A stretch of DNA of 64,000 nucleotides from Picochlorum sp. SENEW3 (lineage: Eukaryota). Both the position numbers and the translations under genes were made by a program. This document shows positions 27,619-51,397 of the stretch, in pieces. The stretch covers positions 372,001 to 436,000 of the forward strand of contig CP120457.1 in NCBI GenBank assembly GCA_034226945.1, written 5' to 3'. The notes beneath the pieces were generated by a model that saw only the letters and a program-made list of their open reading frames with translations, had not been told where the DNA came from and ran no database searches. The first letter of the stretch is position 1, and every line of letters starts with the position of its first letter.

Positions 27619-29158
27619 TATAGATTGGAACAATCAAGACCTTTTGGTTTGATTTTTTCAACAATCCAATGTATCTGGCTATGGAGCGATCTGGAATGGA
27701 TTTTTGCATTTTGAATGGATCCCTGAAAGAGACAATATCCGTTGCTTTGAATGCTTCCGAGATGATATTTGAGAACAGCATAGCATCAAATTGATATTTT
27801 ATATCTCTTGTAGGCACAAAAAAGAGATACAGTACCTCATTATTGCAAGCATGCAGAGCAGCATCGACACTGAGGCCATTTGAAAGTTGCGCTTGCCATG
27901 TAATGTCATGCAAGTCCTCCACATTGGATTGCAATGCGCTGAGTACATCACGCGCATCTTTTTCAACGAGATTCCAATGCATAGAAATCATGGGATGAGC
28001 ACGTCTCTCTCGATACGGCCTATTCTGCTGGCCAGCCTTCATCCATCTCACATGATTGAAATCCACCGCATCACTGATGCTCTGGAATGTGCCCCCAAAT
28101 ACACGCATATTTCTTTTCAATTTCTCTACAAGCCTGTTATTTTTTCCACTAAAAAGCTCTTGAACTCTACTGTCCCAACTCTTCAACCGACCAGATGCAC
28201 CTGCTGCCAACATATCCTCTATACTACCAAATGCACGAACCAATTTTGCTGCCGTCGTATCACTCATACCCAATCCACCAATGCCCGACTCTGATTTTCC
28301 AACAAGAGTTAAGAAGGTCCTATACTGCCTTGGATGAAAATAGTCCTTCCATTCAAATGAATCCAACGTGACACATGCCAACCCTTGCGGGCTTGTCAAC
28401 GTTGGGAATGGAAGAATGTTCAACAAAGACACATGTTCATCTATACATTCCTGCAAATCCGTATCCCCACTAGCGACATATACATGGTATGAAGGCTTAT
28501 TCCAATCCAATTCTTCAGTGCACGCATGAACGATATGGCGGATGGCAGCATCTGCTTCATGTCCTTGAGGGGAAATGACCATGTCTGCCGACTCATCTCC
28601 TTGTCTCTTGAAATATTCCCTGTATTCCCACAAATGGCTCCCACCCCGCGTATCACGGGGAGGATTATTACTATCCACTTGTTCTGTACTCTGCTTTTTC
28701 CGTCGTCTCACTTTGTAGCCCTGCTCCTCCTTGTACCTCATCTCATTGTCATGTCCTGCCACGCCAGGTCTGCTATTTGCTGGATGATCAAAAACACACA
28801 GAATCGCATTCGCGCCCACATATGACGCAAGAAACTCTACCCATACGATAAAAACATCCCTCGGTTTATACCGGGTAATCTTTCTTTCATCCGTACCATG
28901 AGCAAGCTGCTTGCCGTCCTGCAGGACATTCACCTTTGCCCCATACACCTTGCTCAAGATATTCGTCCCATCAACAACTAAATACGTGCTTCCAACAGAA
29001 CGCGCGTCTCCACTCAATACCGACACACATCTTTTCCTTGTGGTACCCCGACAGTATGCTCTATGGGATGAGTACCACACATCTGCCCTTTGTTGCACTC
29101 GACTCTCACACAGCTTGTGAGTGGATACCCACCCGTGTCGTCCCACCACCATGAGCAT
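27611..29158 (-). CDS. Organelle-targeted 5'-3' exonuclease (PIN/FEN-like, Pol I 5'-nuclease type) with a C-terminal extension
   Basis: LVVDGTN, CVFD, YK..R, GHEADA, SGDTDLQ and helix-hairpin-helix-like GIGGLGMSDTTAAKLVRAFGSIE; transit-like N-terminus. Confidence 0.8.
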   Translation of the reverse strand: MLMVVGRHGWVSTHKLCESRVQQRADVWYSSHRAYCRGTTRKRCVSVLSGDARSVGSTYLVVDGTNILSKVYGAKVNVLQDGKQLAHGTDERKITRYKPRDVFIVWVEFLASYVGANAILCVFDHPANSRPGVAGHDNEMRYKEEQGYKVRRRKKQSTEQVDSNNPPRDTRGGSHLWEYREYFKRQGDESADMVISPQGHEADAAIRHIVHACTEELDWNKPSYHVYVASGDTDLQECIDEHVSLLNILPFPTLTSPQGLACVTLDSFEWKDYFHPRQYRTFLTLVGKSESGIGGLGMSDTTAAKLVRAFGSIEDMLAAGASGRLKSWDSRVQELFSGKNNRLVEKLKRNMRVFGGTFQSISDAVDFNHVRWMKAGQQNRPYRERRAHPMISMHWNLVEKDARDVLSALQSNVEDLHDITWQAQLSNGLSVDAALHACNNEVLYLFFVPTRDIKYQFDAMLFSNIISEAFKATDIVSFRDPFKMQKSIPDRSIARYIGLLKKSNQKVLIVPIYIS

Positions 29159-33388: not shown

Positions 33389-34948
33389 TTATGGAGTGAA
33401 AATTTCTGCCAATGTGCATCGAACACCTCCGCCTCCAATGTGTTCTAAAGTATCTATATTCGCATGATGAATGCCCGCGACATGACGCTGGAGGGTATTC
33501 TTTTGGTCAAGCGTAAAGGCATTGTATGCCCTTGTTGACATGGCCATGACTGGCAGGCCTCTATCATCTTCCAATTCCAACACATTGCCGCACAAGGCAG
33601 CCATCTGCTGCTGAGAAATATCTACAATTTCATGCGTCTTTGACAGCTTTGTCACAAAGCGTTTTCTCTCCGCATCATCAGTAATACTTTCCAGGCATGC
33701 AACAGCCACACTCGTTCCCACAGCCATCATGACATTTGTGTGATAGACAGGGGACCCTTTTGAGTCAGAACTATGAAACGTCACCAAATCATTATATCCT
33801 AATTCTGCCACCCACTTTTCTGCGAGCTCCAAATCCGCCCGCTCTGACAAGGCTACAAACGCTGTTCCCCTGACCCTGTCCAACACAAGCACACCAGTCC
33901 CCTCAAAATACCGTCCTTTCTTCTCCTCCCCAGATAAATCAACAATCTTACCATACCCCATACCCTCTAATATCTCTTTAATATCATCTCGCCGTTCCGC
34001 CTGCCTGTTTGGACACTTCATTGGATAATACACCAATGTGGATGTCCCAACGCCCCCTTGGGCCTCTGATGCTGCGTGCGTTGAAAACCAATTGTTCGGG
34101 AAAACTGCATCAGGTGTTCCGTGATGCAAACAATGTTGAAACAAATTCACCTTGACCCGCGCATTCTCTGTCAACACGGTATACAAGTCTGAAAACTCTT
34201 TCAACACCTGCTGTGTCACAGACCCCTGTATCACCTCCCCAGTCTCCGTATTCATAAACGAATTATCCTGTGCAGCCTGATCATTAAACACAAATGCAGT
34301 CGGAGCCACCATCAAAACTTCATTCGACGACTGCCTCGCCGTACTCATACTCTCAGACAGCGCAGCAGCCTCCTTCAGGTTTGAAACCTGCTTCACTGAC
34401 AACCCATGCATCTTCAAATACCGCACCAAATCAGTCCCAATATCCTTCAATGTATACGTATCATGTCCATCATAATCATACTGATCAACCACAAGCCTTT
34501 CCTGCGCCTGCAACACATCTGCAGCAACAGCAACAGTCTTTGGCCCAACCATGACAAGAGAGTCCTTCAGCAACCTCGGATTCTCATCATGCGCTGCAAA
34601 CGCATCCCTCACCACAGCAATGTGATTCGGATCTTTTCCTTGAACCATCATCCCAGAATCATACAACACGTGCTTTGGAAGCCTCGCCATGGCTCCCCAC
34701 CCTCTCTGAGCAAGCCTCACCAGCACACTCGACGAATGACCGTCATTGTGCGCATTCCCCGGCAAGACCACACATTCTCCATTTTTAGACGATCCACCAC
34801 CACCATCATCATCATGCGTGGCAAGAGAAAAAGCTGACGAATGAATCCCCTGCGTCTGAGCCACCACCACACCAAAGCTGGAAGAAGACAGCCCAGAAAC
34901 ACGCTCTCTCGCCCTTCTCAACACCGCAGGAAACATTATCACGGACAA
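33389..34948 (-). CDS. Amidinotransferase/pentein superfamily hydrolase (CtlX/arginine deiminase-related)
   Basis: EVLMVAPTAF, PDAVFPNNWFSTH, YPM..R..ERR, EGTG..VLDR, YHTNVMM and the catalytic GGGGVRCTLAEIF; mitochondrial-type presequence. Confidence 0.88.
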   Translation of the reverse strand: MSVIMFPAVLRRARERVSGLSSSSFGVVVAQTQGIHSSAFSLATHDDDGGGGSSKNGECVVLPGNAHNDGHSSSVLVRLAQRGWGAMARLPKHVLYDSGMMVQGKDPNHIAVVRDAFAAHDENPRLLKDSLVMVGPKTVAVAADVLQAQERLVVDQYDYDGHDTYTLKDIGTDLVRYLKMHGLSVKQVSNLKEAAALSESMSTARQSSNEVLMVAPTAFVFNDQAAQDNSFMNTETGEVIQGSVTQQVLKEFSDLYTVLTENARVKVNLFQHCLHHGTPDAVFPNNWFSTHAASEAQGGVGTSTLVYYPMKCPNRQAERRDDIKEILEGMGYGKIVDLSGEEKKGRYFEGTGVLVLDRVRGTAFVALSERADLELAEKWVAELGYNDLVTFHSSDSKGSPVYHTNVMMAVGTSVAVACLESITDDAERKRFVTKLSKTHEIVDISQQQMAALCGNVLELEDDRGLPVMAMSTRAYNAFTLDQKNTLQRHVAGIHHANIDTLEHIGGGGVRCTLAEIFTP

Positions 34949-35031
34949 TATCGATTTATCTCCTTCCTTTAGTTGTTATGAATGGCACATTGCTGGCGCC
35001 GCAAGGCAAATACCCTACTCCCATTCATCAC

Positions 35032-35049: not shown

Positions 35050-35581
35050 GACGCGGTGTCATGTCATGTATAAAACATTTAAAAAGTGTCTACATTAGAA
35101 CATTACATACATGTCCGAAACCGTTCCATGCAATACAAGACCCTGCCACCACCTCCGACTCCGTAACGCATGAAATACATCAGAATATATTATTGTATCA
35201 AAGAATAACAACGGAAGAATATGTCCAATGTCGTATGGCGGATGCCGACGATGCATCGCCCGTGACGCACGAATTGATATCAGTCTGTGCGTTTTAACCA
35301 AGGGTGTTGTATCTCATTTGACATTATGAAGTAAAATATACAAGGTAGGTGGCATTGGGGTTGCTAGCAGTGTTTGGCTGTCTTGTCTACGTGAGCGTGT
35401 GAGAATTGAGCAGTCGACACTTTTTTAATGCAGACGCAACTAGTGTGTGACAATTTTTTAACGAACGCTTGTATTAATATTACATTCTGAGACTGAGAGG
35501 ATTATTAGTAGCAGTAAACTCGTACAATATATTCCACCTTGTACATTTGTGACGGACATCTTGAGGGAAACACTTTTTTTG

Positions 35582-37171
35582 ATGGAACCGAAGAGGAGAA
35601 AGGATGATTGTGCGGGTATTGAGGGTCCAGATACTCTTCTGGGTGATTTGAGTAAGGATGCACACGGGGGAGTGAAGAGGCAAAGGTGTGGTGGCGATGT
35701 GATCCCCTACCCATTCATGGTGGGTGAGAAGGAGGCTCTGAGGTTGAAGGAGCAGCCGAGCTCGAGTCTGAGGGATACCATGGTGACGCCGCCTAGTGGG
35801 CTGTATAAGAGTAGTGGAGCACGATCACAATCGAAAGAGAGTGATAAGAATGGGGATCGAATAGATTCGTATCTGTTGAAGTTGTTGAGTCCAGCAGAGA
35901 TGACAAAGGTTATTAGTGCTGGACAGGCTGGTTCCACAGGGTTCAAAATGCCAGAGCCCAAGGTTGCACGGCACGATTCACAAGGGAAGAGTGGTGCAGC
36001 TGGTATTCAGGCATCCAATTCTTTGGGGAAGGAGAAGGTGAAACGTGGTCAGTGGGAGTATGTGGATACGCAGAATGTTCTGGGAGAGGACTTGACAGGT
36101 GCTCTGAGGAACTCTGTTGTGCAACACCAAAGGGAGTACCTGGAGCAGCTGTACGATCTTCATCGAGCTATAGCGGTGCAGTCGTTACTTGTGAGACATA
36201 GTAATGATCAGCAAATGGTTGTTGATTCGTATCAGAAGGAAAAGGAACGGGAAAAGAGGGCACGGGAGAAGGCTGGTTTAGGATTTGAGACGTCCACATC
36301 CTTGCATAAAGGTCTTCACCCAGATTCCCAGTTTGCAGCGGTTCCTCCTTCGCAGGATACAAATGCTGATGGTAGTGGAGATGATTTGACTGGCAGCGGT
36401 GATGATGTTGCTGGAAGTGGAAGTGGGGGAAATGGAAAGTCAGGAAATGGAAGTGGAGGAGGCTCGACAAGTCATCTCAATCCTCCTGGTGGTGGTCCTG
36501 TGATTCAGGGTCAGGTAAATGCGACAGGCATGCATCGCGCTCCATCAGGAGCGAGCAATGCCCCGATGTTTTCTTGGCCAACAGGCCATATGCTTCAGAT
36601 GCCTTTGCCTACAGGCGGGCCTGCTCCATGGAGTCAGGGATTGGATGGAGGGAATGATGCGGCCACTGGGATATATGGACAGGCTGGGTACCCAAGTCAA
36701 GATCCAATGATGTGGTGGTATCAGGATTATTTCAATCGATATGGAAATTCTCTCCAGCAACAGCAGGAGAAGGGACAAGAACATTCAAAGACTGTGCCAT
36801 CCGTATTTAAATGGTGGCAAGATCCTAAACTGGCATTCGGTGCCCCTGCTGATGCGAAAGAAGTGATTGCAAAGACCAAGGCGCCAGTTCGGCGTGAAGG
36901 TGGTGAGGTTGAATCCGCACCTGCCAAATCTCGTGGAAAGACTGAGAGAATTGTTGCTCCTCCTCCCAAGCCCATGAAGCGGCGAAGGAGGCGCAAACCT
37001 GAGGATCCGGTTGGAGAAGCAAGCAGTGGTACAAGTGGACCTGCGTATCATCACCAGAATTCTTCTGATGATGTGTGCAATGCACGGTCTCCAAAATCAC
37101 GGGATGCCAATGTGGCAAAACTTTTGCTTTCAATTAGTGGAAAATGCATGGATGGTACTACTAGCGCTTGA
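35582..37171 (+). CDS. Low-complexity nuclear protein with an ELF3-like conserved block
   Basis: VLGEDLTGALRNSVVQHQREYLEQLYDLHRAIAVQSLL resembles ELF3 block II; NLS KPMKRRRRRK; C-terminal NVAKLLLSIS. Confidence 0.6.
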   Translation: MEPKRRKDDCAGIEGPDTLLGDLSKDAHGGVKRQRCGGDVIPYPFMVGEKEALRLKEQPSSSLRDTMVTPPSGLYKSSGARSQSKESDKNGDRIDSYLLKLLSPAEMTKVISAGQAGSTGFKMPEPKVARHDSQGKSGAAGIQASNSLGKEKVKRGQWEYVDTQNVLGEDLTGALRNSVVQHQREYLEQLYDLHRAIAVQSLLVRHSNDQQMVVDSYQKEKEREKRAREKAGLGFETSTSLHKGLHPDSQFAAVPPSQDTNADGSGDDLTGSGDDVAGSGSGGNGKSGNGSGGGSTSHLNPPGGGPVIQGQVNATGMHRAPSGASNAPMFSWPTGHMLQMPLPTGGPAPWSQGLDGGNDAATGIYGQAGYPSQDPMMWWYQDYFNRYGNSLQQQQEKGQEHSKTVPSVFKWWQDPKLAFGAPADAKEVIAKTKAPVRREGGEVESAPAKSRGKTERIVAPPPKPMKRRRRRKPEDPVGEASSGTSGPAYHHQNSSDDVCNARSPKSRDANVAKLLLSISGKCMDGTTSA

Positions 37172-37297: not shown

Positions 37298-38746
37298 TTA
37301 ATTATACGAGCTCCTCTCTCGTAATTCTGTTGATGAGATGTCAAGACGGAATTCATCTGCAGACAAGGCAGAGAAGAGCGATCCTCTCCTCAAGACCTCT
37401 GGTACCTCGATATCCTCGAGCGTATGGAACCTTCCCGTCTCTTTATCAACCCTACCGGCAACAATGAAATCGCATTTTTGGTGGGCGAGCTTGGCAAACT
37501 GAAGCATCATGGCTGTCTCAGACCCATAGTACCTTTCCTGTACTAGTCGTACTGCTGTATCATATCCCACCACGAACGTACTCGATGGGAACAGTTCTGC
37601 CTTCATCGTGAATAAAGGTGCTTGAGTAAGAATCACAGGAGCACCAGTAGCCACAAATTGCTTTACTCGGCGCTCTATTTCAGACTGGTCGAGCAACCCC
37701 TTGTCTGCATTTCCAATAGAAAGCTCAAAGGCTCCCTCTTTTCCTGGGCGTCTATTCTCGGCTGCCATTAAAAGCTCTCTGTGCCCATCATGAAGTGGAT
37801 TGAATGACCCAGGTAGGTATATTCTGTTTGGTCGAGGAGCGTCCAAATAGATACACCCTCCTGAAAACTCCACAGTCTTGGCCTCACCAGTCAAAATCTT
37901 TTTCACTGCTGCTGACACACACGCGTTAGATGAATCATTCATCCCTGGTATTAAATCGTGTCTTTCGTACTGTAATGTATCAACGTTTGTATCGATACAT
38001 TCCTGAGTAAAGTGCTCCATACCCTTCTCCGTCACACCCATGGCACTAGCAATGGCTTCCAAGGCAAGCTCGCTTGCAATCACATCCTCCTCCAATCTGC
38101 TCCGAGCTCCCTTTTCCAGTATCAAGGAGTACCATGTGTATGCCCTTGGTCCATACACGGAAATAAAAATCTTATCATCACCTCGACGGTGTCTGTCAGT
38201 AGCCAGTCCACATGTCACCCCCACCCCCATCACGGGCGTTCCAAAGGCACTCCAACCAACTGCTTTACGGTACGCTGCCTTTGCCAATGCAATAGCTGTT
38301 GGAACACTCGCTGATCCAGTATTCGTATCATGAATCTCAGGAGGAAGAACCTCCTCCATACTATCCTGGCTGTATGGAATACGAACATCCAATACAGTTC
38401 TCGATGCTCCCGGTACACTCAACAGCCACGTACTCGTATGCATCCCTCCTCCAGTCACAAAAAGGACAAGCTTTGTCTGAGTGCTATGAATTCTTTCGAC
38501 AACACTCGTACGCCGATCATCATCAGCCGAGACAACGGCATGGCTTCCTCCCTCTTCCATAGTATTCACTACTGTACGTACACCTCTCTCACGTGGAACC
38601 TTTTGTCTATTGGGTGTACTATTTTGTTTTATAGTACTTTGAAATCCAAATAACAGCCTCGTTTGCGAAGGGTTTGCAATCACACGCCCAACACGACGAG
38701 TGTTTTCACCCTGCAGCTGACACAGACTCTTGGTCGTGCTCCACAT
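37298..38746 (-). CDS. CinA-like N-terminal domain plus nucleotidylyltransferase (NMNAT/NadD-like HxGH fold)
   Basis: LFVTGGG..WLLSVPGASRTVLD, LATDR; PGSFNPLHDGH, FVVGYDT, DISSTELR. Confidence 0.88.
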   Translation of the reverse strand: MWSTTKSLCQLQGENTRRVGRVIANPSQTRLLFGFQSTIKQNSTPNRQKVPRERGVRTVVNTMEEGGSHAVVSADDDRRTSVVERIHSTQTKLVLFVTGGGMHTSTWLLSVPGASRTVLDVRIPYSQDSMEEVLPPEIHDTNTGSASVPTAIALAKAAYRKAVGWSAFGTPVMGVGVTCGLATDRHRRGDDKIFISVYGPRAYTWYSLILEKGARSRLEEDVIASELALEAIASAMGVTEKGMEHFTQECIDTNVDTLQYERHDLIPGMNDSSNACVSAAVKKILTGEAKTVEFSGGCIYLDAPRPNRIYLPGSFNPLHDGHRELLMAAENRRPGKEGAFELSIGNADKGLLDQSEIERRVKQFVATGAPVILTQAPLFTMKAELFPSSTFVVGYDTAVRLVQERYYGSETAMMLQFAKLAHQKCDFIVAGRVDKETGRFHTLEDIEVPEVLRRGSLFSALSADEFRLDISSTELRERSSYN

Positions 38747-38862
38747 ACAGTCAACAGCACCTGTAATAGGCTATCATTAATATGTAATATACTTTGGTTT
38801 GAGATGAGCCTGTATCCATCGGTAGGCTGTGATGTGGCTGATGATGTGCTTAAAGTGCTTTA

Positions 38863-41800
38863 CTAGTCCCGAGGTCTCCTTATATTTCCCTTTCAAGGCG
38901 GGCGCTCGACCGGACCGGTCGATCTAGGACTGATTGATTGATCAGTGATATACAGACTTAGAGTGGTGTAAGATGGTTACATTTACAATCGACACAGGTT
39001 GCCTTCCGTCAGGCATGGTGTGGAACCCTGATCAGGGTCTTTCGTGACGGAGGGAGTCATGCTGGACCGTGTCGGTCAGAGAGGAGGTGTTTCACAATGG
39101 TGAGCTGCCGCGGAGTCGGGAGAGCAGTGAGCTTGAGGCCTTCCCGGGATGTTTTCCTGGACAGCATCACGTACCCCATGCCCGGAGCGAACAGGTCTCT
39201 GAAGTCCATCAAGGTGGTCCCCGTAATGGAGGCACCTTGACACCTGTGAATGGTCATTGCCTTGGCAAGCATCAATGGAAAGGTCTTTCGGACAAATTGG
39301 TGCCCATCGAATTTGATCTCCTCCTGCTTCCTGGTGATCCCCACCGGAACATCATGGCCGTGAAACAGCACATGTATGGTCTGAATGGATGGAGAATCGC
39401 GCTTTCTGGTGATGGACGTGACGATGCCACGATCGCCATTGAAGACGGGATTGGCAAGACTGCCAAAATTCTGGGTGCACACCACCGAGCAGCCTATTGC
39501 AATTTTCTGGAGGGAATGAAACTTTTCCGAGAAGCACCATTCCTTCTTCTGTCTCGCCGCTTTATCATCCACTCGTGCAATGTCCTCATAGTTGGATACC
39601 ATGTCCACCGGAATAATGTCGTACCGTGGGAACTGTGCGTGCAGCGCAGCGGTGTTGAAATAGGCAACCTTTTTCAAATGAGCATGCAGCGAGATGGCCC
39701 CAGGCTGGGACATGAATTGGATCCACGTTTCGTTGCATGCCGTGTCATACTCGTCCTGACCGAGGGTGCCGTCTCGATCGGGGCGTAAGACGCAGTGTCC
39801 CAGGACCCGTTCTATGTCTGCCTGTGTGGGCGGCGCATGGAGCATGTTCTGCAGGAATTCAGCAAACTCCGGATCCTGTCGCTGCCGCTCCGATATGTGC
39901 ATCGTATGCTGTGTGGCGTACTGAAAGTAATGACACCTTTCCGTCAAGCAACTCGTGCAAACACTTGCAGCCAGATCCTGGATGCTGGACTGGTTGTCTG
40001 ACTTGTGGTGGTCGCCATCCTCTGCACTTGACGATCGAACAGACTTGCAATGACAGATGGGAGGCAGCTGATTGGGGTCTCCCACCAAAATGACTGCCTT
40101 GGTCGTAAAGACATCTTCGACACGGCTCGCATGGGGATCCACAGAGGCATATTTGGCCAGCGCAGTTTGCAAAAAGTTGCCTGTGAGCATAAAAGCCTCA
40201 TCAATAATGAGGACTTTGGAGCTTTGACAAATGGCATACTGTTTACTCTCCGTCCTGATAGTGCTGTGCAGAATACTCCTTTTGTATCCAGGTCCAATGG
40301 ACAAGGCGCTGTGCAGGGTGGATCCATCTGGCAGGTTGCGCGCTGCCGCGCCAGTAGATGCGGTGACAAGGACACGTTGCTTCAATTCCTGGGTGCAGTA
40401 TTGGATGATCTTGTTGATCAGGAAGGTCTTTCCTGTTCCAGGGCCACCATTGATGACGTGCAATCCCGTAAAGTTCGATCGACACAGAGCATCGAAGACG
40501 TTTTGCTGATCCTCGTTCAGTGGGACCGGGCACTGAAGGGCGAGGTGGCTCTCAGGGAATTGATCGGTCTGAAAGGCAGTGGTCCGGTCGTCCCTGTCTT
40601 TGACGTTCGCACCAGTCTTGTAATACTCTCTCAATTTAGCCACATCCGTGAGGATACAGTACTTGGTAATGTTGTAGTCCCGGTAGTACTGCTGCAAATG
40701 TTGAGTCAACTTGAGCGACACATCACGCTCCAGATCTTCATCTGAATCTACCATGCCCAGGGCTTGGCACTTTTTGAAATACGAGCCTTCCGTCAGCAGC
40801 GTGCCCTCCATCCTAAAGGATACGGTCGATAACAGCAGATTGTAGAAAAACCCTTCTGGCAATGATGTGGGGGGATGGTTGGTGAAATGCACAATCTGGG
40901 GACATTTGTGTCTGTACACAAACCTATTCTTTTTGTCCTGGCCAACATACAGGTCTTCACCTTGCAATCGCTTTTTGAGCACCCTGTATGTCCTGAAGTA
41001 CTCGGGGTAGGTGATGTGCTCCATCTCTGGTAGGTCGGGCCTGTTTTCGTAGTAGTCCATGTGTGGCGTGATGACACCATTGCTGCAACTGAGCATCGTC
41101 CGGCGAATCTCTTGTGGTTCTGTCCGGATGTACAGGAAAGGGCATTTGATCCAGCGCCCATCGTGTTTCATCCGCATGTCGGCCACAGGGATTCCCAGAC
41201 ATTGGAGGGAGGCCTCCACGTGGCTGACCGGCTGGCTCTGTGTGGCAGCATTGACCACTTTGACGACTGCAGGGTCGATGCGCGCCATGTTCAGTTGCCT
41301 CTCAACTTCACCATTGACCTCCAGCTTCCCGGTGGGTTCCGATTTCATCGTGTATTTGCATACGTAGAAGGACAGTTGCGAATGGGTGACTCTCTTGAGG
41401 TTCATGTGGCCATTCCAGGACATCAGTAGCTGCAAGCATTAGAGTAATGAAAATCAGTCAGGGAGCAGTAGTCACATCACACAGAAAAGATCTCGAATTG
41501 AAACGTACGAGTGGGTCGTATTCGACGACATTTCTGCTTTCGTAGTTGGGGCAATAGTAATCGTACGAATTGTTGAGCTCGTCCAGTTCAATGTCGCCCA
41601 GATGGATGCCATGGGGAAAGTGGAGTTTACACCCTCCCCGACGAAGGCATTTACCGTTGCAGTTGTGTATTTGTTTTCGACAGATAATCTGATGCAGTTT
41701 ATACTTTCCAGGATTGGTCGCGGGATCAGGACGCTGCAAGGTTCCATCAGGCCCCTCGTCCAGCAGAATGTCTCTCTGAATCTGGTTGCTGTACCGGGCC

Positions 41801-44800
41801 ACGGATTCTGGTGTGGACCACAGAAGGATGTGCGCGTGCACCGCCTGCCTTCCTTGCATTTCGTATCGGCATGTATACTTGGTGATCTCCCCCAGTCGTT
41901 TCATTCCCCCTAGAATGAAATAATTCATGAAATTGGTGACTCGGTGATGGAAGAGGACAGCAGCCTCTGCTTGGCAGTTGTTCATTTTTAGTTTGTATGC
42001 CCCACGGTCTTCACGCAAGTTATTGAGCTCCGCCAGTATATCATCCATCTGTTTGTATTCGTCCCATTTCAGTTCGGTAATGTTGTCCACCGTCAGAGTC
42101 AGGAAATAATCTGGCATGCCAGATTCCTTGGTCAGAGCATTGATCTGATTGACCTTGATGCGCCACCACTGAGGAGAGAAATCAATCGTTCCTGGCACTT
42201 TGTATTTAATCAAGTGGCGGATACACTTTTCTTCACTCTCGTTGGGATGCGTAATCCTCCTCCTTTTGTATGCGTCTGTCAAGGTGAATTTTCTTTGTGA
42301 CGTTGTGTACTGCATCACAATCAATATTTGGTACATCATCAGAATGTACTCTTGTACCAGCGTAAATGGAGAGAATAAGCACGACAGCCTATTCTTTAGA
42401 TACTGACCGAATTCTCCCACAAACGACTGCCTGCCTGGTGGAGGAATGAAGTGGCCTGTGCCATGGGGAAACAGATATGGAAAAATTGTGTTCTCGGCCG
42501 TCATGGGAACATCGCTGTTCGGCAGATGCAGCAGCTCCAACTCTTCTGGAACGTCCTCGGCAGTATCCGTGGAATCATCCGAAGATGGACCAGGCTCGTC
42601 GAGAGTATGAGCTGTAGGATACTCCCCGCTCTCGCTCGTAGTGTGCTGCCTTCGGATACTGGCAACGCCACTGGGATAGCAGGCAAGCTGTTCGGGTTCG
42701 CACAGACTGGAATTCCTATTTACGTGTCTTGGGTACACTTTTCCGACATTCATCGCCGTTGACCCATACAATGCATTCCTGTACACAGGGTCATTAGCTA
42801 TGATGACCATATCCTGTTCGTGGGCCTGCATATCACAACAAATATGGTTTGGTGACTTGCGAGTACGGCTGACGGCATGCATCAGTAAAACATACCTGAT
42901 CTGTACTATTGGAGGGATCTGTACCGGCACCAGCCGTGGTTTGCGTGCCAGAAGGACCTGGATCATCATGTGACGGAGAGTCACCATCCTGCATGAAGAA
43001 ACAGTGTGTCAGTTCACTATTGTGAAGCACACATGTACAAAACTGTACATACCACTTGATCGCTACGTTCCGTGTCTTCTACAGGCCTTTGGTATATCGC
43101 AGGGTTACGATTACGAGCAACTTCCAGGATCGACTCCACTATTCCAGGTGCCAGATATCTATTCAGCAGGAGATCGGGCACTTCGGCCATAGGTCTCAGC
43201 TTGCGATACACAGGATTGGTCACAAGATTTGTAAACAGGACTGATTGAGCTCCAGGATGTATCAAAAGTCTGCCATGCTCCCCAACAATCAGGTTATCAA
43301 CGCCAACCTCAGCAAAATCTTCATCCTCATACCGCGTGCCAGCCTCTCTGACAAGGGGTGCCAGGAACATGTTGAACGCCTTGGCCATCCCAGTACTCCC
43401 GGAGCTGTACTCGGTGAATTCGTAGCCAACGTCCACGCACTGCAACAGCTGCCGTTCTCGAGGGTGGCACCCAAGCAGGACACCTGCATACTGTTTATTC
43501 TCCATGACGTCAAAGTTCACCTCCCAGTCCGTCGTCCTTTTGTTATGAGTCCGATTCTTTGTCACATTATGGCATGTCTTGCATTGTTTCCAACATATTT
43601 GGCCCCGTCCATTTCGAAATGTGTACTTTCCTGGCAGAGTGGGGTTGTTCCGTTGAGCACGGCACTTTCCACCCTCGACATCGGCCCGGTGTTCCTGGAC
43701 ATTTACAAATGTAGGGTTCAGCGATCCACCCAGCTCGCACGCCCCGCACAGGCAGCACCGTGCCATTTCCGTAAAGGTTTTGGAGCACAGGTCATCCCAT
43801 TCTTTTGTCGCCTCCAACAGCAAATCATAGTACTCTCTGCCTCTTTCTCGCCCACGTGCTTCTATTTCAAATATTTGATTGCTCAATCGTGCTATTTCTG
43901 GATTACAATAGTCCACGGCAGGCGATCCAGAGTCATCGTCGTTGTCTGACAAATTGTCCACCTCCTCCTCTTCAAGATTGTAGTCTGCATCGTCCGCATC
44001 TCTTGGGCGACGACGTGGTCTTCTCCTCGGCCGAGAAGAAGAAGAACGTATATTAGCGTGTCCATGACTGTCATCTGACATTTGCATGGCCTCGTGCTCT
44101 TCGAAGCTCGAGTCAAAAGGGTCATCCACACCAGTGTCGTCATCGAAGAGCAAGAAGTCTCCATTCTGCAGGTGTGTCTTCCTGGTGGCACGCCTTCTGG
44201 GTCTTTCAGAACGAACAGGTGTACTTTGGTCGTGATTTACTGTCTCCCTCGATTCTGCACCTCTTCGTATGCGTCGGTCGGTCCTGTAGTTCACAGTAAA
44301 GTCTGCGTCCTCTACATGTTTAGAGTTACACATGACCAGTGTTGCAATGTGAAAAGGTTCAATCTTTTTACATGATTATTCCAAGTAATACATATTGATA
44401 GCAGTCAACATGGTCTTTATGGATGAAATGCCTGGTCAACTCACCACATCATAATAGTAGCACGTTGACTCTCCTGTCACCAGGTGGTGCCCAGTCAACC
44501 CTTCAGTCCAAGTCCGACTATCGCGAACATTAGTCGCAATATCTTCCTCATCTTTGAATCGATCAGTAGGTCTTTAGAAAGAAACATTTTGTTTTTTCAT
44601 CTTCTTTTCATTTCGTCCGCCAGAAGAAGCCACAGTTCAACTTGGTACAATCAGAAATTCGTCCGAATCACCGCATTTCCACCTTCCGCTCGTCCCCCCG
44701 AGACGAATTCTGGACTATTCGACGCAGAACAGGCTTCTTAGTCGAGTTAGGCCATCGACGGGATTAATTAGGCAGGCACAGGCCCGGCAGGCGGCGAATT

Positions 44801-44836
44801 AGGCCACAGTTCTTATTCGGGATATAAGGAGCCCCA
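38863..44836 (-). mobile_element. Autonomous Helitron-like rolling-circle transposon (Helitron2/Helentron-type); boundaries approximate
   Basis: Encodes HUH Rep plus PIF1 helicase. Inverted repeat CTCCTTATAT (38876..38885) pairs with ATATAAGGAG (44822..44831). There is a hairpin at 38906..38922 and a CTAG|T at 38866..38862 on the minus strand. It lies between divergent host genes. Confidence 0.8.
39057..44333 (-). CDS. RepHel transposase (HUH/Y2 endonuclease plus SF1B PIF1-like helicase), 4 exons, ~1687 aa
   Basis: Exons 44333..43053, 42988..42896, 42825..41509 and 41429..39057 are joined by phase-0 GT-AG introns. Motifs: FPYLFPHGTG, YFLTLT, RYEMQGRQAVHAHILLW, YDPL|LLMSWNGHMN, FYVCKYTMKSE, GGPGTGKT, ASTGAAA, STLHS, LIIDEA, VGDPNQLPP, SERQ, NGDRG, FPLMLAKAMTIHRCQG, GMGYVMLSR. 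Confidence 0.93.
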
Positions 44837-44929
44837 TTACAGAATTTTTGCATTCCTACTGGATACTGAAAAGAAAAATTGCATGCATTTCTTTTACGAA
44901 TCTGTTATTCCCATTATTGTTTTTGCTGC

Positions 44930-45364
44930 ATGAACGTTGCGATGGGGCATCTTTGCATTGTGGGTCCAAAGGGAGTCCCACGTGCTAGCAGCAGCACAAC
45001 CACTGGTGTGCTTGTCTCTGCACGTTCATTCATGACCTGGAGGAGGCGGTCAGGCTCTATGTTTGTTAGATCGAGTGATCCGGATCAACAGATGGATCGG
45101 TATGAACCCAAGCGTTTTGATGATGTGGACAAGCTGCTCTTGTCTGTGAAACACTATGTGCAGCATCCAGACAAGGCTGTCAGGGATTTTTGGACATTTG
45201 TGGTCGAGTCGATTGGTTTGATGCGGCATGTATACAAGCCTAAATTGATTAGGGAAAGTGTGTGGAGGTCTATTGTGGTTTTGATTGTTGTTGCAGTATT
45301 CTGCAGTGTGGTTGTTGGAATGGATGCCTGTCTGCAGCTGCTTCCAGCAGCGATACAGTCATAG
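44930..45364 (+). CDS. SecE-like plastid preprotein translocase subunit
   Basis: Transit-like N-terminus, an amphipathic segment FVVESIGLMRHVYKP, then one TM helix ending in GMD, as in SecE proteins. Start uncertain. Confidence 0.5.
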   Translation: MNVAMGHLCIVGPKGVPRASSSTTTGVLVSARSFMTWRRRSGSMFVRSSDPDQQMDRYEPKRFDDVDKLLLSVKHYVQHPDKAVRDFWTFVVESIGLMRHVYKPKLIRESVWRSIVVLIVVAVFCSVVVGMDACLQLLPAAIQS

Positions 45365-45456: not shown

Positions 45457-48400
45457 TTATTCTCCAAGTTGCTGCTTGTCTTCAATGTCGATGAGATCAA
45501 CATAGTCCCTCTTGTGGGCTGGCAAACCTGCTTGATCCTTCCAGTAGTCAATCTTCTTCTTGAGGTTCATGACTTCCTTGCTGTTGTCGTCTTGCTTGAC
45601 ATTGTTCTTGATCGTCGATACTCGTGTGGCGTATTGCAGACTGTTTTGGGTTTCGTCCAAGTTGCCATCCACAGGAGACACATTGACAAACATGAGGGTC
45701 TTTGCAGTTCCACCAATGGAATCGGACATCAACATTGTGAGCTTGTGGTCGCGATATGGGACATGTCCTTGCTCTGTAGCGAGAGCAGAAATGACGTTGC
45801 CGAGGGCAGACAAGGATTTGTTGATGGCTTGGGCCTCCTTGAGCTGGTCTCCTGCAGATCCACTCTTCTTGACTCTCTCACTTCCAGCCAAATCGACAAA
45901 GGAAAGTTTTCCTCTTGACATGCCCTGTGTCTGAAGATTGGTGGTCTCAATCATCACAGAGATGATCAAATGTGAACGAGAAGATTCTCTGTTCATCTGG
46001 GTGGAGGAGACATGTCGTCGCTTTTGTCCAGCTTCAATGGTGTCCATCAATTCGCGAACAGAATGCACCTCCACAATGGTGGATCCGGGCACAGTGACGA
46101 CTCCCTTTGGATCCTTCTTGATTTCCAATTTCGTCTTCTTGCCATCAGCTTTCTTGTCGCTGAGCAAGTCTTGGAGGTCATCAATATACAACTCCAACAT
46201 GCTGACTTGCACCTTTGAGGAAGTTTTACCAGACTGTCTCTCCAGAATGTCAAACAACTCAGTCACTCCTCTTGGAGTCAAACCAGGGAGTTCATCGTTT
46301 CCATAGATGGTGAATGTTTTTCCAGAGCCGGTCTGACCATATGCAAAGATGCAGACATTGTAACCATCAACAGCACTTTGAATCAGATGCTTTGTGTCAG
46401 CAAACACCTTCTCCTGTGTCGTATCGCCGGTGAAAACAGCATCGAAGTTGAATTCCCTCTTCTTGTCCTTCCAGTTCAGGTTGATGGTCAGTTCATCTGG
46501 AATGTTGACTGCCATTTCCTGCCCACGTTCTCTTTCGAATGTAAGAAGGGGACGAACGCGGCAGTAGACTCTAATCTTACCCTTCATATCCTCCATTTGA
46601 TTGTACAGCTTTTTCCTTGTAATCGACTCATCTTTGTACAATTTCTCAAGCTCCTCTAATCTCTTTGCCTGATTGGCGATGAGCTCAGCTTGTGCCTTTT
46701 CTTTGCGTTCCACATCTTCTTTCAGTTCCCTGAGTTCCTCCAATTCCTTCTCAGCGCCCTCAAACGACTTCAACTTGGTAGTAGCCTCGTTGAGAAGCAT
46801 CTCTTTGTTTCCCAAGTCTTCCATGAGATCATTGATTTTGTTATCCTTCTCTTTGATCGCACCGACAGCACCTGCTGTTCCGGACGCTGCTGTTGCAGCT
46901 GCAAGTTCAGCAGCATGATTCTCCTCCAACCTGGCAACCTTTTGCTCGAGAGCAGTTTTCTCTGACTGAACTGCACGGATACGAGCTTCGATCGCTTTAA
47001 TTGCCTCAGGATCGCCTCCATCCAGGCTCAAGTTTGACAAATCCATCGCAGCACCATCAGCACCTCCACCCTTCAGGGCATTCACTTCATCAGAAAGCTG
47101 TGCGTGTTGCTCTTTCAAATCAGCAATGATGGCATCTTTCTCTCTGATTGTTTCATTAGCTTCATCCAGCTGACGCTGAAGCTCTCCAATATGTGCCTGA
47201 TATTTGGGTCCAAAGTTGGCTTCAGTTGGTCCCTCTGCACTTTCAGCCTCATTTCCTGAGGCAGCCTGTGCCTTCGAGTAACGCTTCATCATAATATCAT
47301 TAATATGCGTTTGCAACGCCATGCAAATATCTTCTCCTTGCTTAGTCTCAAACTGGAAAATGTGCAAGACTCCAGCCACTCTCATCTTGAAAAAGACTGC
47401 ATTTGATGAGGATCCAAACTGCATAATGTCCCTCAATTCAGCAGATTGCAGATACTCCTTTGGCACCGGCCTGAAAAAGTGTACTCCCCGCTTATTGATA
47501 CCAATAATGAGTTTTGCTGGCAACAGACCAATGGGGTCCTCAATCCTCTTCACCGCGAAAAAGATGGAGTTTCCATACTTCATAGATCTGATAATCCTCA
47601 AGAACTGAAGACGGGAATCATCTTTGGAGAACTGAGCAAGGGCTTTATACCTTGACAGAATATCAGCTGTCCATTCGTTTCGAGGCCTGCTCGAAAGAAT
47701 GGATTTGACCATGTATTGATCAATGACGGCATCAAATTCCTTTGCATCGCTGTCAAATCCTGGACCATGCTCTGCCTGGATCTGAAGGGCACACATTTGC
47801 GCTGCATCATCCCGAATCACGGGGTATTGCCCATGGATGTAATCATGCTGCGCTTGGATGTATGAAAGAGCGACAAACCTTGGTTCAGAGATCGTTTCAT
47901 CCGTCTCTCTAAACATCTTCTTCTTGAACAAAAGCTTGACAGATTTACCATCCTTTGCCTTTGCCTGCTTGATATCAAACATGGCATCCGCAATGTACTT
48001 GTTCTCGTCCAAAGGAACATGCTCATCGAGTCCTGGAGATCCCAGCTCAGCCATAGCCTTGGATCCTTTGTGCACAGTGAACAGCGAGAATGTCTGATAA
48101 TTCTGCAACTTGATTTGAGAAGCAATAGACTCGGTTGCTTCCAGCACCGATGTGCTTGAATCGAAACTCAATTCTTCGAATGTTTCATCAAGGAAAAACA
48201 CAATGCACGTCTGCTTCTGTCCCTTCACCAATGCATCCAACTCTTGCAGTTCTGGCAGCGTTCTCCTTTGCCCAGCCTTTGCTGTCCTCTTCACAGCATT
48301 CCAAGTCGCTGTGGCCAAAGAGCGCACTTCTTCCTCTTCATCATCATCATGGGCACATTGATGAATGTATTCCGAAATCATGCTCAAAAAGTCCTTGGTT

Positions 48401-48930
48401 GGAGGCATACAGGATGCAGTAATGTAAAACAGCTGCCATGCTTTGGCACGAGACGCAGGACTGGGGCACCCACGCGTTTGCTTCACCAACTGAAGGAACA
48501 GCTCATCCCGAAGTTCAGTTCTCTTCAGCCCTTGGTGCAACAATTTCTGCGCCAACTCAAGACTCTGAACCTGAGAGAGCATTTCCCCAGACGCTCCCAT
48601 ATACTGCAACACAGAAGCAAACATCTTCACCGCTCTACTGGCATTCTCAGAAGAATGTTTCAACAAAGAAACTGGAATTGGATCACTTGAATACACAAGC
48701 ATATCATCACTCGTGAGCTGCAAACTCTGTCCATCTGCAGGAGAGTCGGATGCCTTGCCAAATCCGAGGATTTTTCCAATACCTTTTCCACCACTTCGTG
48801 AGGCTTTATTGAATGCATCCACCTGCATTTTATCATTGTGACTGTCCAAGCCTTCAAGCACAGGTGTCTTTACCCCACCGGTACTCATCCGAGTGCTTGC
48901 TGGCGTGATGGGATCATCCTCAGTGGTCAT
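45457..48930 (-). CDS. KCBP: Kinesin-like calmodulin-binding protein (MyTH4-FERM-coiled coil-kinesin-14 motor)
   Basis: MyTH4 (LRDELFLQLVKQT), FERM (LFKKKMFRE, GINKRGVHFFRP), motor motifs GKIRVYCRVRP, YGQTGSGKT, SSRSH and VDLAGSER. A small upstream exon is possible. Confidence 0.96.
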   Translation of the reverse strand: MTTEDDPITPASTRMSTGGVKTPVLEGLDSHNDKMQVDAFNKASRSGGKGIGKILGFGKASDSPADGQSLQLTSDDMLVYSSDPIPVSLLKHSSENASRAVKMFASVLQYMGASGEMLSQVQSLELAQKLLHQGLKRTELRDELFLQLVKQTRGCPSPASRAKAWQLFYITASCMPPTKDFLSMISEYIHQCAHDDDEEEEVRSLATATWNAVKRTAKAGQRRTLPELQELDALVKGQKQTCIVFFLDETFEELSFDSSTSVLEATESIASQIKLQNYQTFSLFTVHKGSKAMAELGSPGLDEHVPLDENKYIADAMFDIKQAKAKDGKSVKLLFKKKMFRETDETISEPRFVALSYIQAQHDYIHGQYPVIRDDAAQMCALQIQAEHGPGFDSDAKEFDAVIDQYMVKSILSSRPRNEWTADILSRYKALAQFSKDDSRLQFLRIIRSMKYGNSIFFAVKRIEDPIGLLPAKLIIGINKRGVHFFRPVPKEYLQSAELRDIMQFGSSSNAVFFKMRVAGVLHIFQFETKQGEDICMALQTHINDIMMKRYSKAQAASGNEAESAEGPTEANFGPKYQAHIGELQRQLDEANETIREKDAIIADLKEQHAQLSDEVNALKGGGADGAAMDLSNLSLDGGDPEAIKAIEARIRAVQSEKTALEQKVARLEENHAAELAAATAASGTAGAVGAIKEKDNKINDLMEDLGNKEMLLNEATTKLKSFEGAEKELEELRELKEDVERKEKAQAELIANQAKRLEELEKLYKDESITRKKLYNQMEDMKGKIRVYCRVRPLLTFERERGQEMAVNIPDELTINLNWKDKKREFNFDAVFTGDTTQEKVFADTKHLIQSAVDGYNVCIFAYGQTGSGKTFTIYGNDELPGLTPRGVTELFDILERQSGKTSSKVQVSMLELYIDDLQDLLSDKKADGKKTKLEIKKDPKGVVTVPGSTIVEVHSVRELMDTIEAGQKRRHVSSTQMNRESSRSHLIISVMIETTNLQTQGMSRGKLSFVDLAGSERVKKSGSAGDQLKEAQAINKSLSALGNVISALATEQGHVPYRDHKLTMLMSDSIGGTAKTLMFVNVSPVDGNLDETQNSLQYATRVSTIKNNVKQDDNSKEVMNLKKKIDYWKDQAGLPAHKRDYVDLIDIEDKQQLGE

Positions 48931-49921
48931 GGCTGCTAGGGACACACACACAACACGAGAGGTTCACTTCACCGTTACCGCTGCAGCGGGACAATGTCGA
49001 TATAGATCTGCATGAGTATTGATATCAAGTCAAATTCCGAGCCCACACATGCTGTTTCCGTGGGTCGTTGTGCAGCGTTGGGAGCAACGCGTCGAGTCAA
49101 CGAATCAAGGCACGCAGATGCCCATACACTCGGGATGGGCGTGACCTAATACACAATTGGATCGAATTCAAACCCATGAGCCCATGAAAATACACAATGA
49201 TGCCAATAGGACGGTGCGTTTGCAATCCATGACCGGGGTGAGAGAAATTCGATCCACCCCCCAAACTCCACCAATGGATGCATTTGATCCACATTTCAGG
49301 AACTGAAATTTGTAAATATTAGGAAAAGGACAATCATGAGGCCTACCTGTGCGACAAGTACCTCCCGCTCGAAGGTGATCTCTGCACACGCAACGTCGTC
49401 TCTGCGGAAGATTCTGTTCCACGAACAAATCGGGAGTTGTATCAATTTCTTACTGCGCAAGTCGAAAATATATTGAGAAAAATTGGCAGTTGTGGATGCA
49501 TGAATGGCATTTCAAGCGCAATGCGGATGCTGGCACATCATCGTCTGTTGGGCAGGGTCTTTGATGGGCATATCGATATCCATGATCATGGGCATCTGGT
49601 GGCCACCAGTCAGTATACCTACTCGAATAACAACAATTCCTAGAGGTATGTTTTTGATCCACTTGAAAGATGTCACGTTGTGGCGAGTGAAACAAATGCT
49701 GGAGCTTGGGTCAATACCAGTGTCCGGTATTGACTGTGAGTAACCGACAGATGATTATGGTGTTTGACCTGCAGGTCAATCAGCTGATGGAGTACCCAAC
49801 AACACAAGGCACTGCTGTATATATTGTGTAGGTGCCTCAGAGTCTATATATATACTCGTTCATGGTATAGGTATTCGTTATACGTATCATTCCATTACGG
49901 TAATATATATAGAGTCTGGTG

Positions 49922-51397
49922 ATGATGGTGGCACCAGACAAGCGGTATGTACCAAAGGGTGGGTATCTGGTGGATTTTGAGAAGAGGGTCACCCCAAAGT
50001 TGAAGAGGATTATGGCAAAGGAGTCTGGTGATGTAGCGGCAAAGGAAGAGTGTACAATGAGTGGGGACACGCCGTCATCTGAATGTATGGCACTGGTGTT
50101 GTGGAATGGTGGTCAACCACCAGCAGAGAGCAGTGCTGTCGTGGAGCACGTGACACAAACAACGCATACAAAGAATACGAGTCAGCATAAAACGCAATGG
50201 AAGCCTCCAGGATGTTTGAAGAGACAGTTATGGAAGAGGCCGGCGAGTTGGGCAAGGTCAGCTAAGAAGAAGAACCAGCACATGGATGACAAGGCACCAC
50301 CAGTATCTGTTGACGACGAAGCCCAAAAGCAAGCTGAAGAATACCTGAAGGAAGAACGGTGTATCTTGGAGAAGGAAAGAGAAAAGTTGGCGGAACAGCA
50401 GGACATGGCACAAAGGAAGATGATCCAGGCAGAGTCCTTGATGTCAAAGTGCTCACGAGAGATGAAGGAGTTTCAGGCGTACAAGGTAGGTGATGTGTTG
50501 ACAAGAGACACCTTTACATATTTTTTGAGTATCGTATGCGTGCCATATTGCACAGGAGGAAGAGATGGAGAATATTCGGCAGATGAAAGTGTCTGTGAAG
50601 CAACGCAGGATTCGAGATAAGCTGGCTGGTGCATCTGAGGCGAGAGGATCCTTACACCATGCAGAAATTGCAAAGTTGCGCGTTCAGATTGAGGAATTTG
50701 AGGTATGTTGGTTATCAAAAAGGAATGAGATTACCAATCATGAACACACAAGACTGAAACAATGGTGCAGGCAGCATTGAAGGATACCAATGCCAAAGGG
50801 AAGGCTCAGGCTCAAAAACACCATGTTGAAATCGCCAAATACAGAGAACGGGAGAAGATAATGGAGGAAGAAATCATGCATCTTCAGGAAACATTGGCAA
50901 AGTATCGCCTCACATCAGATGATGTAAAACGACAATCTGTGAGGTTGCCATCAACGCCAGATGAACAGCCATGCCCAGCATCCACAGAAGTGATGAAGCA
51001 CGGGATCGTTGAGGAAATCAAACATGAAAACAACACGGTTGAAAGACGGTGGGCAAATGGTAGCAAGCAGTTTGTGTATGAAAATGGAGACGTGAGGCAA
51101 ACATTTGATTCGCAGGTTGTTCAGTACTATTACTCCAGCATTGATTGTTGGAATACCTCGTATCCCAACGGCGATCACGTGTACTATTTCAAAGATGGTA
51201 GAAGAGAGTGCCACTGCTCCGATGGCACGATTCAAATACTATTACAGAATCATCAGGTTGCATATTCTACACAGGGACCGTTGCATGCATTACAAAGCAT
51301 CCCCATCCACAGCATAAATACAAATCTTCTGCAGCCATGTCCAACAATTTTGGGCTCCGACTATACCCCTTCATCATCTAACATCGTGATCAGATGA
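49922..51397 (+). CDS. Coiled-coil protein with C-terminal TCP10/G-box domain (SAS-4/CPAP/CENPJ-like)
   Basis: Three exons joined by introns 50486..50555 and 50703..50770. C-terminal beta-meander repeats ERRWANG..YENGDV..YYYS..TSYPNG..YFKDG..HCSDGT are typical of the Tcp10_C domain. Confidence 0.75.

Follow-up and report, generated by a model that had tools for sequence, protein, structure and literature searches.

An apparently intact Helitron-like element with an intron-containing transposase gene in Picochlorum sp. SENEW3

Does a gene labeled as a host PIF helicase in the alga Picochlorum sp. SENEW3 belong to a rolling-circle transposon? The question arises from a locus on contig CP120457.1, of which we analyzed a stretch of 64,000 nucleotides (nt; here referred to as the window, with all coordinates given as window positions). 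The locus takes up about 6 kb between two host open reading frames (ORFs) of divergent orientation and contains three long stop-to-stop ORFs, arranged head to tail on the minus strand (43017-44375, 41458-43008, and 39057-41438). An original prediction, made from the sequence alone, took it for an apparently intact, intron-containing element of the HLE2 (Helitron2/Helentron) group inserted into a divergent promoter. Here, we report that the locus holds a Helitron-like element, a known kind of mobile element that is new for Picochlorum, and we put at roughly 70% the probability that it is a full-length, apparently autonomous copy of a Helitron-like rolling-circle transposon. A literature search for Picochlorum Helitrons gave only an incidental mention, and the genus is not in the HELIANO species tables.

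The three ORFs are parts of a single four-exon gene encoding a RepHel (Rep-helicase) transposase, which consists of a Cys-rich N-terminal domain, an HUH-Y2 nuclease, and a Pif1-like superfamily 1B (SF1B) helicase, with no endonuclease. As had been predicted, they can be joined across three phase-0 GT-AG introns and a 93-nt exon into a protein of 1687 amino acids (aa): the computed join of the four exons is a coding sequence of 5064 nt, including the TGA, with zero internal stops, and all three introns share a GTAYGT start and a TGCAG end (Table 1). Translation may begin at M1 (44333) or at M83 (44087), the latter giving 1605 aa and corresponding to the point at which the paralog P0003 begins; this paralog is encoded on another contig of the SENEW3 genome and is 39 to 42% identical to the window protein. 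Residues 83 to 132 (window 43938-44087; MQMSDDSHG...RPRRRPRRRPRD...NLSD) show, by manual count, ∼76% identity to the first 50 residues of P0003, and this common 50-aa stretch could possibly be a shared module resembling a nuclear localization signal, a first exon held in common, or the outcome of recombination between the families.

Support for the individual exons differs. Exon 1 encodes an acidic/basic N terminus followed by the Cys-rich conserved domain (approximately residues 175 to 420), in which a Pfam scan found no family even at an E value of ≤10. Those residues align with the N-terminal regions of P0002, P0003, P0005, P0006, and P0008, and we assign exon 1 to the gene because the aligned regions in these five relatives all run on into Rep. 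Exon 2 is the weakest part of the model: beyond its frame and splice signals, it shows only a faint likeness to the linker of P0002 and no Pfam match, and a join of exon 1 straight to exon 3 is also in frame. A scan of the window for the splice pattern GTAYGT-N35-110-YGCAG returned 9 sites, 3 of them the introns of the element, and 50 shuffles led us to expect 7.9; without enrichment, the pattern is uninformative on host introns.

The remaining exons are matched by a public protein, P0001, annotated as 'ATP-dependent DNA helicase PIF6, partial [Picochlorum sp. SENEW3]' and listed in a cluster with 20 member sequences. Its 1229 aa equal exon 3 plus exon 4 (439 + 790 aa) at 100% identity and coverage, starting at the first codon of exon 3 and reading through ...EYDPLLLMSWNGHMN... 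Its start and length therefore indicate that the annotators' model uses the intron 3 junction and the intron 2 acceptor and misses exons 1 and 2. Fusion of Rep and helicase across intron 3 is confirmed both by P0001 and by intron-free relatives.

The HUH, Y2, and helicase motifs are all intact in the spliced protein, in agreement with the original prediction, and occur in the order CCLCG (residue 193), FPYLFP (573), HAH (788), YVCKY (919), GTGKT (1228), DEAFM (1307), GDPNQLPP (1347), and HRCQG (1625). Exon 3, which carries FPYLFPHG, FLTLT, and HAH, matches Pfam Helitron_like_N (E value of 2.1e-15; 58 bits, a partial match) and, under that model's own cutoff, REP_ORF2-G2P (1e-5); exon 4 matches PIF1 (1.3e-23; 84 bits) and other P-loop helicase models. 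No Pif1_2B match was obtained in the window protein. The predicted lack of a C-terminal apurinic/apyrimidinic (AP) endonuclease was borne out, in that Pfam returned no match to Exo_endo_phos and the protein stops ∼60 aa past HRCQG.

Comparison with proteins of known structure agrees with these assignments. A phmmer search of PDB sequences with the Rep exon alone found no match at an E value of ≤1, and because the single sequence found none, a profile was needed: that of exon 3 with 22 relatives matches residues 436 to 747 of Helraiser (7lcc) at an E value of 1.8e-27, across motif I, HUH, and Y2. Exon 4 matches Pif1 helicases in the PDB (best E value, 9.9e-19) and Helraiser (8.6e-9). An AlphaFold2 model of the Rep exon, computed from 23 aligned sequences, had a mean predicted local distance difference test score of 67.6 and a predicted template modeling score of 0.48, and a Foldseek search of the PDB with this model gave no match at an E value of ≤0.001, so that the fold search was uninformative. 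Within the helicase, a Cys-rich insert (PPIC-H-C...C-x2-C; window 39950-40090) follows GDPNQLPP and lies between motif III and the next conserved block. Its residues C898, C930, and C933 (P0001 numbering) are invariant in a 5-sequence alignment, and the insert may be a zinc ribbon peculiar to the clade.

Intron 3 interrupts the conserved block YDPL/LLMSWNGHMN between residues 897 and 898, where the original prediction had placed it, and the same site is common to six relatives: P0012 (86% identity), P0032 (55%), P0180 (49%), P0002 (47%), P0181 (44%), and P0034 (41%). The ORF-called proteins P0002, P0032, and P0034 end a few residues past YHPL, with a Val codon first, as would be expected of a frame that runs into the GT... 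of the intron; P0012, P0180, and P0181 are ORFs of 777 to 781 aa that begin at the first Met after the intron 3 point. Most other relatives in the motif scan are continuous across the site. Given that six relatives break frame at this position, the intron is a property of the lineage of the element, not a peculiarity of the window copy, and, judging from these proteins, it is old within that lineage.

The family is large. A search of 1.84 billion representative proteins with the Rep exon returned 601 at an E value of ≤1e-3, 194 at ≤1e-10, and 36 at ≤1e-30, and full-length members measure ∼1250 to 1610 aa. Named members come from Picochlorum sp. SENEW3 (P0001 and P0003), Picochlorum sp. BPE23 (P0013), and Tetradesmus obliquus (P0010), and most others are metagenome proteins; P0004 derives from an alternative 'n2' scaffold of the SENEW3 assembly, as described in PMC11092101. 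Judged by these sequences, the family resembles several transposon lineages rather than a single host gene.

One of these lineages, P0003/P0013/P0182, is from the same family and genus as the window protein and has the same N-terminal domain. It differs in a C-terminal extension of ∼350 aa after the helicase, absent from the window protein, with a weak Ulp1/Peptidase_C48 match (E value of 0.03) and an H...D...C pattern; Peptidase_C48 is among the domains that HELIANO lists in Helitron-like elements (PMC11417382). P0003 (SENEW3) and P0013 (BPE23) hardly differ over the parts that both possess (end branches, 0.0065 and 0.016 in the helicase tree), and P0013 is without large parts of the Rep and helicase present in P0003; deletion within a copy, poor gene modeling, or recent transfer could each account for this.

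To which Helitron group does the family belong? HELIANO separates HLE1 from HLE2 by phylogeny, ends, DUF6570, and captured domains and proposes DUF6570 as an HLE2 marker; as given there, HLE1 ends read TC...hairpin-CTRR with insertion between A and T, and HLE2 ends have 12- to 16-nt inverted repeats, a stem-loop past the right repeat, and insertion between T and T (PMC11417382). Our HLE2 anchors were four DUF6570-bearing matches, namely the fish Helentrons P0015 (Carassius gibelio) and P0016, plus P0020 and P0027; the eight HLE1-type anchors, for which the HLE1 label is assumed, were P0017 to P0019, P0021, P0022, P0024, P0029, and P0031, five of them from plants. The best matches to a family profile outside the family were P0015 and P0016 (292 and 259 bits, with 89% and 63% coverage), and the best HLE1-type anchors were P0017 (181 bits) and the plant protein P0018 (172 bits), each over 38% of the query. 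The top Atlas cluster was DUF6570/Helitron_like_N (score of 0.96), which we treat as a lead only.

Three Rep characters are common to the family and the fish Helentrons: W-x3-M-[DN]-[IL]-Q, an RxE that precedes HUH, and an FPxLFPxG with no insert behind it. The first is the WxxxMN-type motif on which the HLE2 assignment had partly been based, and it retains its value, since five of the six Helitron1-type rows shown do not have it and the sixth is unaligned there. FPxLFPxG itself, also offered as a sign of HLE2, does not; three of the six plant-type Helitron1 rows shown carry it exactly and three in near form, and it therefore provides no discrimination between the groups.

Trees were built from Rep (56 of 87 rows passing a coverage filter in the first; 37 rows with extended fish anchors in the second, which left out P0004, P0024, P0029, and many family rows) and from the helicase (46 rows). 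The family makes up one side of a branch in both Rep trees (support of 96 with 42 rows and 99 with 25 rows), and the Helitron1-type anchors form their own clade (support of 100). The family is not nested inside that clade, contrary to the grouping that the original prediction had named as evidence against itself. Among the family, HLE1, the fish Helentrons, P0020 plus P0027, and P0025 plus P0026, support in the Rep trees is 28 to 86, and the four DUF6570-bearing anchors are not monophyletic. The family is a distinct RepHel clade outside canonical Helitron1 that resembles the Helitron2/Helentron side in its Rep motifs, and only this motif flavor favors HLE2.

Several results weigh against our reading of the locus as a complete, autonomous element with affinity to HLE2, and some concern its classification. 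Pfam found DUF6570 in neither the window protein (exons 1 and 3 scanned at an E value of ≤10) nor any of 31 relatives (5 scanned at ≤10, 3 at ≤1e-3, and 23 at ≤1e-5), versus all four HLE2 anchors. An hhalign comparison of the N-terminal domain with the DUF6570 regions of the anchors was colinear and weak (E value of 0.019; probability of 2.4%). Approximately unbiased (AU) tests rejected none of four groupings: with the HLE1 anchors, the family had a p-AU of 0.538 for Rep and 0.603 for the helicase, and with the HLE2 anchors the values were 0.512 and 0.345. The predicted choice of HLE2 over Helitron1 is thus a tentative one: the Rep clade outside the Helitron1-type anchors and the Rep motifs favor it, the absence of DUF6570 speaks against it, and the AU tests reject neither side. 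With three bacterial Pif1-like proteins as the root, the helicase tree placed the family outside both HLE1 and HLE2. We discarded this reading, since the outgroup did not come out as monophyletic, the tree had long branches, and the AU tests overturned it. In the same tree, the bacterial Pif1-like protein P0023 (Seonamhaeicola sp. ML3, with a helix-turn-helix domain) grouped with the fish Helentron helicases (Shimodaira-Hasegawa-like approximate likelihood ratio test, 94), not with the two remaining bacterial proteins of the outgroup, on long branches; this placement recalls the prokaryotic origin proposed for Helitron helicases (PMC8788227).

Other adverse results concern the termini. When the 617 nt preceding the ATG were compared with the 337 nt that follow the stop codon, the longest inverted match was one perfect 10-mer, and 42 of 300 shuffles of the two flanks reached at least 10 nt. 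The sole candidate terminal inverted repeat is thus at chance level; the short inverted repeats invoked in the original prediction (8 to 16 nt in HLE2) amount to this single pair near both outer edges. Two palindromes lie 3′ of the stop codon (DNA fold of 38855-38960, −14.2 kcal/mol; z score of −1.87; 7 of 200 shuffles at least as stable), and we infer that they act as a termination signal. In gene orientation, however, both are upstream of the right arm, by 20 nt, and nothing folds past the arm, which is the wrong side; the 81 nt around the left arm contain no stable fold (z score of +1.60). This order of hairpins differs from the published Helitron2, Helentron, and HLE2 layouts. In Helitron2, the 5′ asymmetric terminal inverted repeat (ATIR) is described as lying 0 to 2 bp from the end and forming a 5′ hairpin, and the 3′ ATIR as lying 20 to 30 bp from the end, directly upstream of a 3′ hairpin (PMC3627910); for mite Helentrons, repeats 38 to 60 bp and palindromes 8 to 35 bp from the end are given (PMC4067079).

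Reversing the element does not restore the layout. Some Helitron2 elements have RepHel in the opposite orientation, according to Bao and Jurka (2013; PMC3627910); in that orientation, T-CTCCTTATAT at 38875 would form a 5′ end, and the other arm is followed, after a 10-nt gap, by only a weak AT-rich 4-bp stem (44842-44855) in the region with the z score of +1.60. The predicted boundaries (38863 and 44836) read A/T...G/T, versus the T/T insertion of HLE2. Canonical-looking strings are present (CTAG followed by T at the predicted 3′ boundary and A followed by TC at 44823/44822), and 43 nt separate this CTAG from the end of the nearer palindrome. A repeat search displayed 20 direct and 25 inverted repeats, all of them scattered short matches and none terminal.

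Further adverse points come from the genome. No second copy, fragment, or solo end was found in the 64-kb window by self-BLAST of 38700-45000 or by tblastn with the spliced protein, and three introns with good splice signals would be no surprise in a host gene either. Transposable elements are reported to make up 4.99% of the SENEW3 nuclear genome and DNA transposons only 0.35% (PMC11092101), so that any family of the latter would be low-copy. One 1,369-character supplement file of the SENEW3 genome paper contains no Helitron or PIF entry.

Could the host then have kept the gene for itself? A domesticated or host-retained RepHel gene would be single-copy, fixed between its two neighbors, selected for a host function (for example, as a helicase), and immobile, and to this one can reconcile the intact ORF, the uniform GTAYGT...TGCAG signals, the annotation of the locus as a gene by MAKER and the repeat-poor genome with its 0.35% of DNA transposons (both PMC11092101), the absence of a further copy in the window and of convincing termini, and the almost identical P0003 and P0013 of the sister lineage. 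We nevertheless regard domestication as unlikely. Divergent lineages of 41 to 86% identity with a common intron site look like a diversifying transposon family, P0013 is without large parts of both domains relative to P0003, and every catalytic motif of nuclease and helicase is kept; moreover, GC content at third codon positions (GC3) is higher in the helicase exon than in any of the 11 host ORFs, and the locus breaks an otherwise tight divergent gene pair. Another alternative is a dead but still open copy, a recent arrival with an undecayed ORF whose ends were lost or mutated so that it can no longer move. Such a copy would account for the lack of partner copies nearby and of any terminal structure above chance save the two palindromes, with their modest z score; yet 1687 stop-free codons with all motifs intact point to recent function or selection, and true ends would not be recognizable from one copy in any case. 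We judge this explanation improbable.

A canonical Helitron1 with TC...CTRR ends inserted between A and T is the remaining alternative, and the CTAG followed by T at the predicted 3′ boundary and the A followed by TC at 44823/44822 conform to it, as do the AU tests in leaving the family a possible sister of the Helitron1 anchors. Chance alone, however, will produce strings as short as TC and CTRR, and the 43 nt between the nearer palindrome and CTAG contrast with a hairpin described as ∼11 nt from the end (PMC4067079). The four Helitron1-type proteins scanned score 177 to 215 bits with Helitron_like_N and 208 to 298 bits with PIF1, versus 58 and 84 bits here, the window protein has no Pif1_2B match, the motif flavor of the family differs, and the family is not nested in the Helitron1-type clade. 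A canonical Helitron1 is, in our estimation, very hard to defend.

If the apparently autonomous transposon that we favor works as Helraiser does in the model outlined in PMC10288648, the HUH site with Tyr919/Tyr923 would nick one strand at the 5′ end of the element, the helicase would unwind in the 5′-to-3′ direction, and the 3′ palindromes would mark the place of the second cut; a circular intermediate would then be pasted elsewhere without target duplication. By analogy, the introns would travel with the element DNA and be removed by the host spliceosome.

Among described systems, Helitron2 (for example, Helitron-1_CRe of Chlamydomonas, described in PMC3627910 and listed as HLE2 by HELIANO in PMC11417382) likewise has a single RepHel without endonuclease in a green-algal host, and palindromes near one end are a further likeness. 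The expected inverted repeat of 8 to 15 bp (PMC3627910) is represented in the window by the chance-level 10-nt pair, and the ATIR/hairpin layout, compared by published description only (PMC3627910), is not seen in the gene orientation. The fish Helentrons P0015 and P0016 are ∼21% identical to the window protein, form a separate clade on the trees, and carry Exo_endo_phos, whereas the window protein is without Exo_endo_phos, OTU, Herpes_teg_N, or Pfam DUF6570. We rejected assignment to Helentron sensu stricto, which needs an AP endonuclease C-terminal to the helicase. Helraiser and Helitron1 (7lcc; plant-type P0017 to P0031) have the same order of Zn-finger-like N terminus, HUH-Y2 Rep, and Pif1-like helicase, but Helitron1 has IEFQKRG and [FY]xAH[IV]NVE where the window family has RYEMQGR and WxxHMNLK/Q, and the Helitron1-type proteins have much higher Pfam scores, a Pif1_2B domain, and a separate clade. 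Replitrons, like the window element, are eukaryotic HUH-Rep transposons found in algae, but their transposases are described as having one catalytic Tyr and no fused helicase (PMC10288648); with its Y2 motif and fused SF1B helicase, the window protein is therefore not a Replitron.

Coordinates of the gene and of the candidate terminal features are collected in Table 1. The non-coding region upstream of the ATG presumably holds the promoter or 5′ untranslated region and the true 5′ end; it contains no tandem repeat scoring ≥30, no Rfam family, and no tRNA. Neither Rfam, applied at its gathering threshold, nor ARAGORN returned a match, and the tandem repeat search gave two trivial rows only.

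Table 1. Parts of the RepHel gene and candidate terminal features of the element, in window positions
Feature	Position	Strand	Observation
5′ non-coding region to the predicted boundary	44334-44836	-	no ORF with homologs
Left arm of candidate inverted repeat, CTCCTTATAT on the gene strand	44822-44831	-	perfect 10-nt pair
Exon 1, 427 codons	44333-43053	-	open frame from first ATG
Intron 1, 64 nt, GTATGT...TGCAG, phase 0	43052-42989	-	read-through meets a stop after 15 codons
Exon 2, 93 nt, 31 codons, low-complexity linker	42988-42896	-	open frame, both splice sites good
Intron 2, 70 nt, GTATGT...TGCAG, phase 0	42895-42826	-	P0001 begins exactly at first codon past acceptor
Exon 3, 439 codons, Rep (HUH-Y2 nuclease) domain up to YDPL	42825-41509	-	Pfam Helitron_like_N
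Intron 3, 79 nt, GTACGT...TGCAG, phase 0, inside YxPL/LLxxWxxHMN block	41508-41430	-	spliced out in P0001
Exon 4, 790 codons, then TGA (39059-39057)	41429-39060	-	Y2 motif YVCKY, linker, Pif1-like SF1B helicase
Palindrome ACTGAT-6-ATCAGT	38946-38929	-	3′ of stop codon
Palindrome TCGACCG-3-CGGTCGA	38922-38906	-	3′ of stop codon, adjacent to the first
Right arm of candidate inverted repeat, ATATAAGGAG on the gene strand	38876-38885	-	10-nt complement of 44831-44822

Two host ORFs flank the element. On the lower side, ORF 37298-38770 (minus strand) has a nucleotidyltransferase motif and matches CTP_transf_like (E value of 4.8e-4) and the NMNAT equivalog (1.3e-3), all under cutoff; on the upper side, ORF 44870-45364 (plus strand) matches SecE at an E value of 0.059. 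The labels NMNAT-like and SecE-like are thus sub-threshold. The two ORFs point away from each other, and the geometry therefore fits a split divergent promoter; elsewhere in the window, only a few to ∼130 nt lie between neighboring long ORFs, as expected of the compact genome that had been supposed, and we infer that the element inserted between these neighbors. GC3 is 0.65, 0.56, and 0.49 in the three ORFs of the element (0.65 in the helicase exon) versus 0.33 to 0.52 in 11 host ORFs of ≥400 aa, which gives mild support to a foreign or mobile origin.

Elsewhere in the window, ORF 35462-37171 (plus strand, 569 codons) has a Gly/Ser/Asp-rich low-complexity middle (GSGDDLTGSGDDVAGSGSGGNGKSGNGSGGG) and lies within ∼130 nt of the NMNAT-like ORF. 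ORF 45457-48963 (minus strand) runs for 1168 uninterrupted codons with a long N-terminal region and carries SSRSH and DLAGSE at its C-terminal end, which we take to be kinesin-motor-like strings. The 1-kb bins 17001-18000, 28001-29000, 34001-35000, and 50001-51000 have strong GC skews of +0.31, −0.30, −0.30, and +0.23, the last with an AT skew of +0.29.

A bolder interpretation, which we consider doubtful, is that the clade constitutes a third deep Helitron-like lineage beside Helitron1 and the DUF6570-bearing Helitron2/Helentron. Its marks would be its own Cys-rich N-terminal domain, the helicase Cys-rich insert, the lack of an endonuclease, and palindromes inside the inverted repeat. Green algae and the marine or aquatic eukaryotes of metagenomes would then commonly carry such a lineage, a spliceosomal intron in the catalytic Rep block would have persisted in one sublineage down to ∼41% identity, and the 13-Mb genome of Picochlorum would harbor a copy that is still active.

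Although understanding of how Helitrons work is unchanged by this element, it has consequences for the alga and for the family. Picochlorum species are streamlined algae under development as production strains, and the labeling of an intact, apparently autonomous Helitron-like element as a host PIF helicase is an annotation error that deserves correction. The classification of Helitrons in algae and protists would benefit if this clade of 601 representatives, which is without the HLE2 marker domain, were added to reference sets. Structural change or gene capture in Picochlorum strains may also arise from the element, which, if shown to be active, could offer a native rolling-circle tool.

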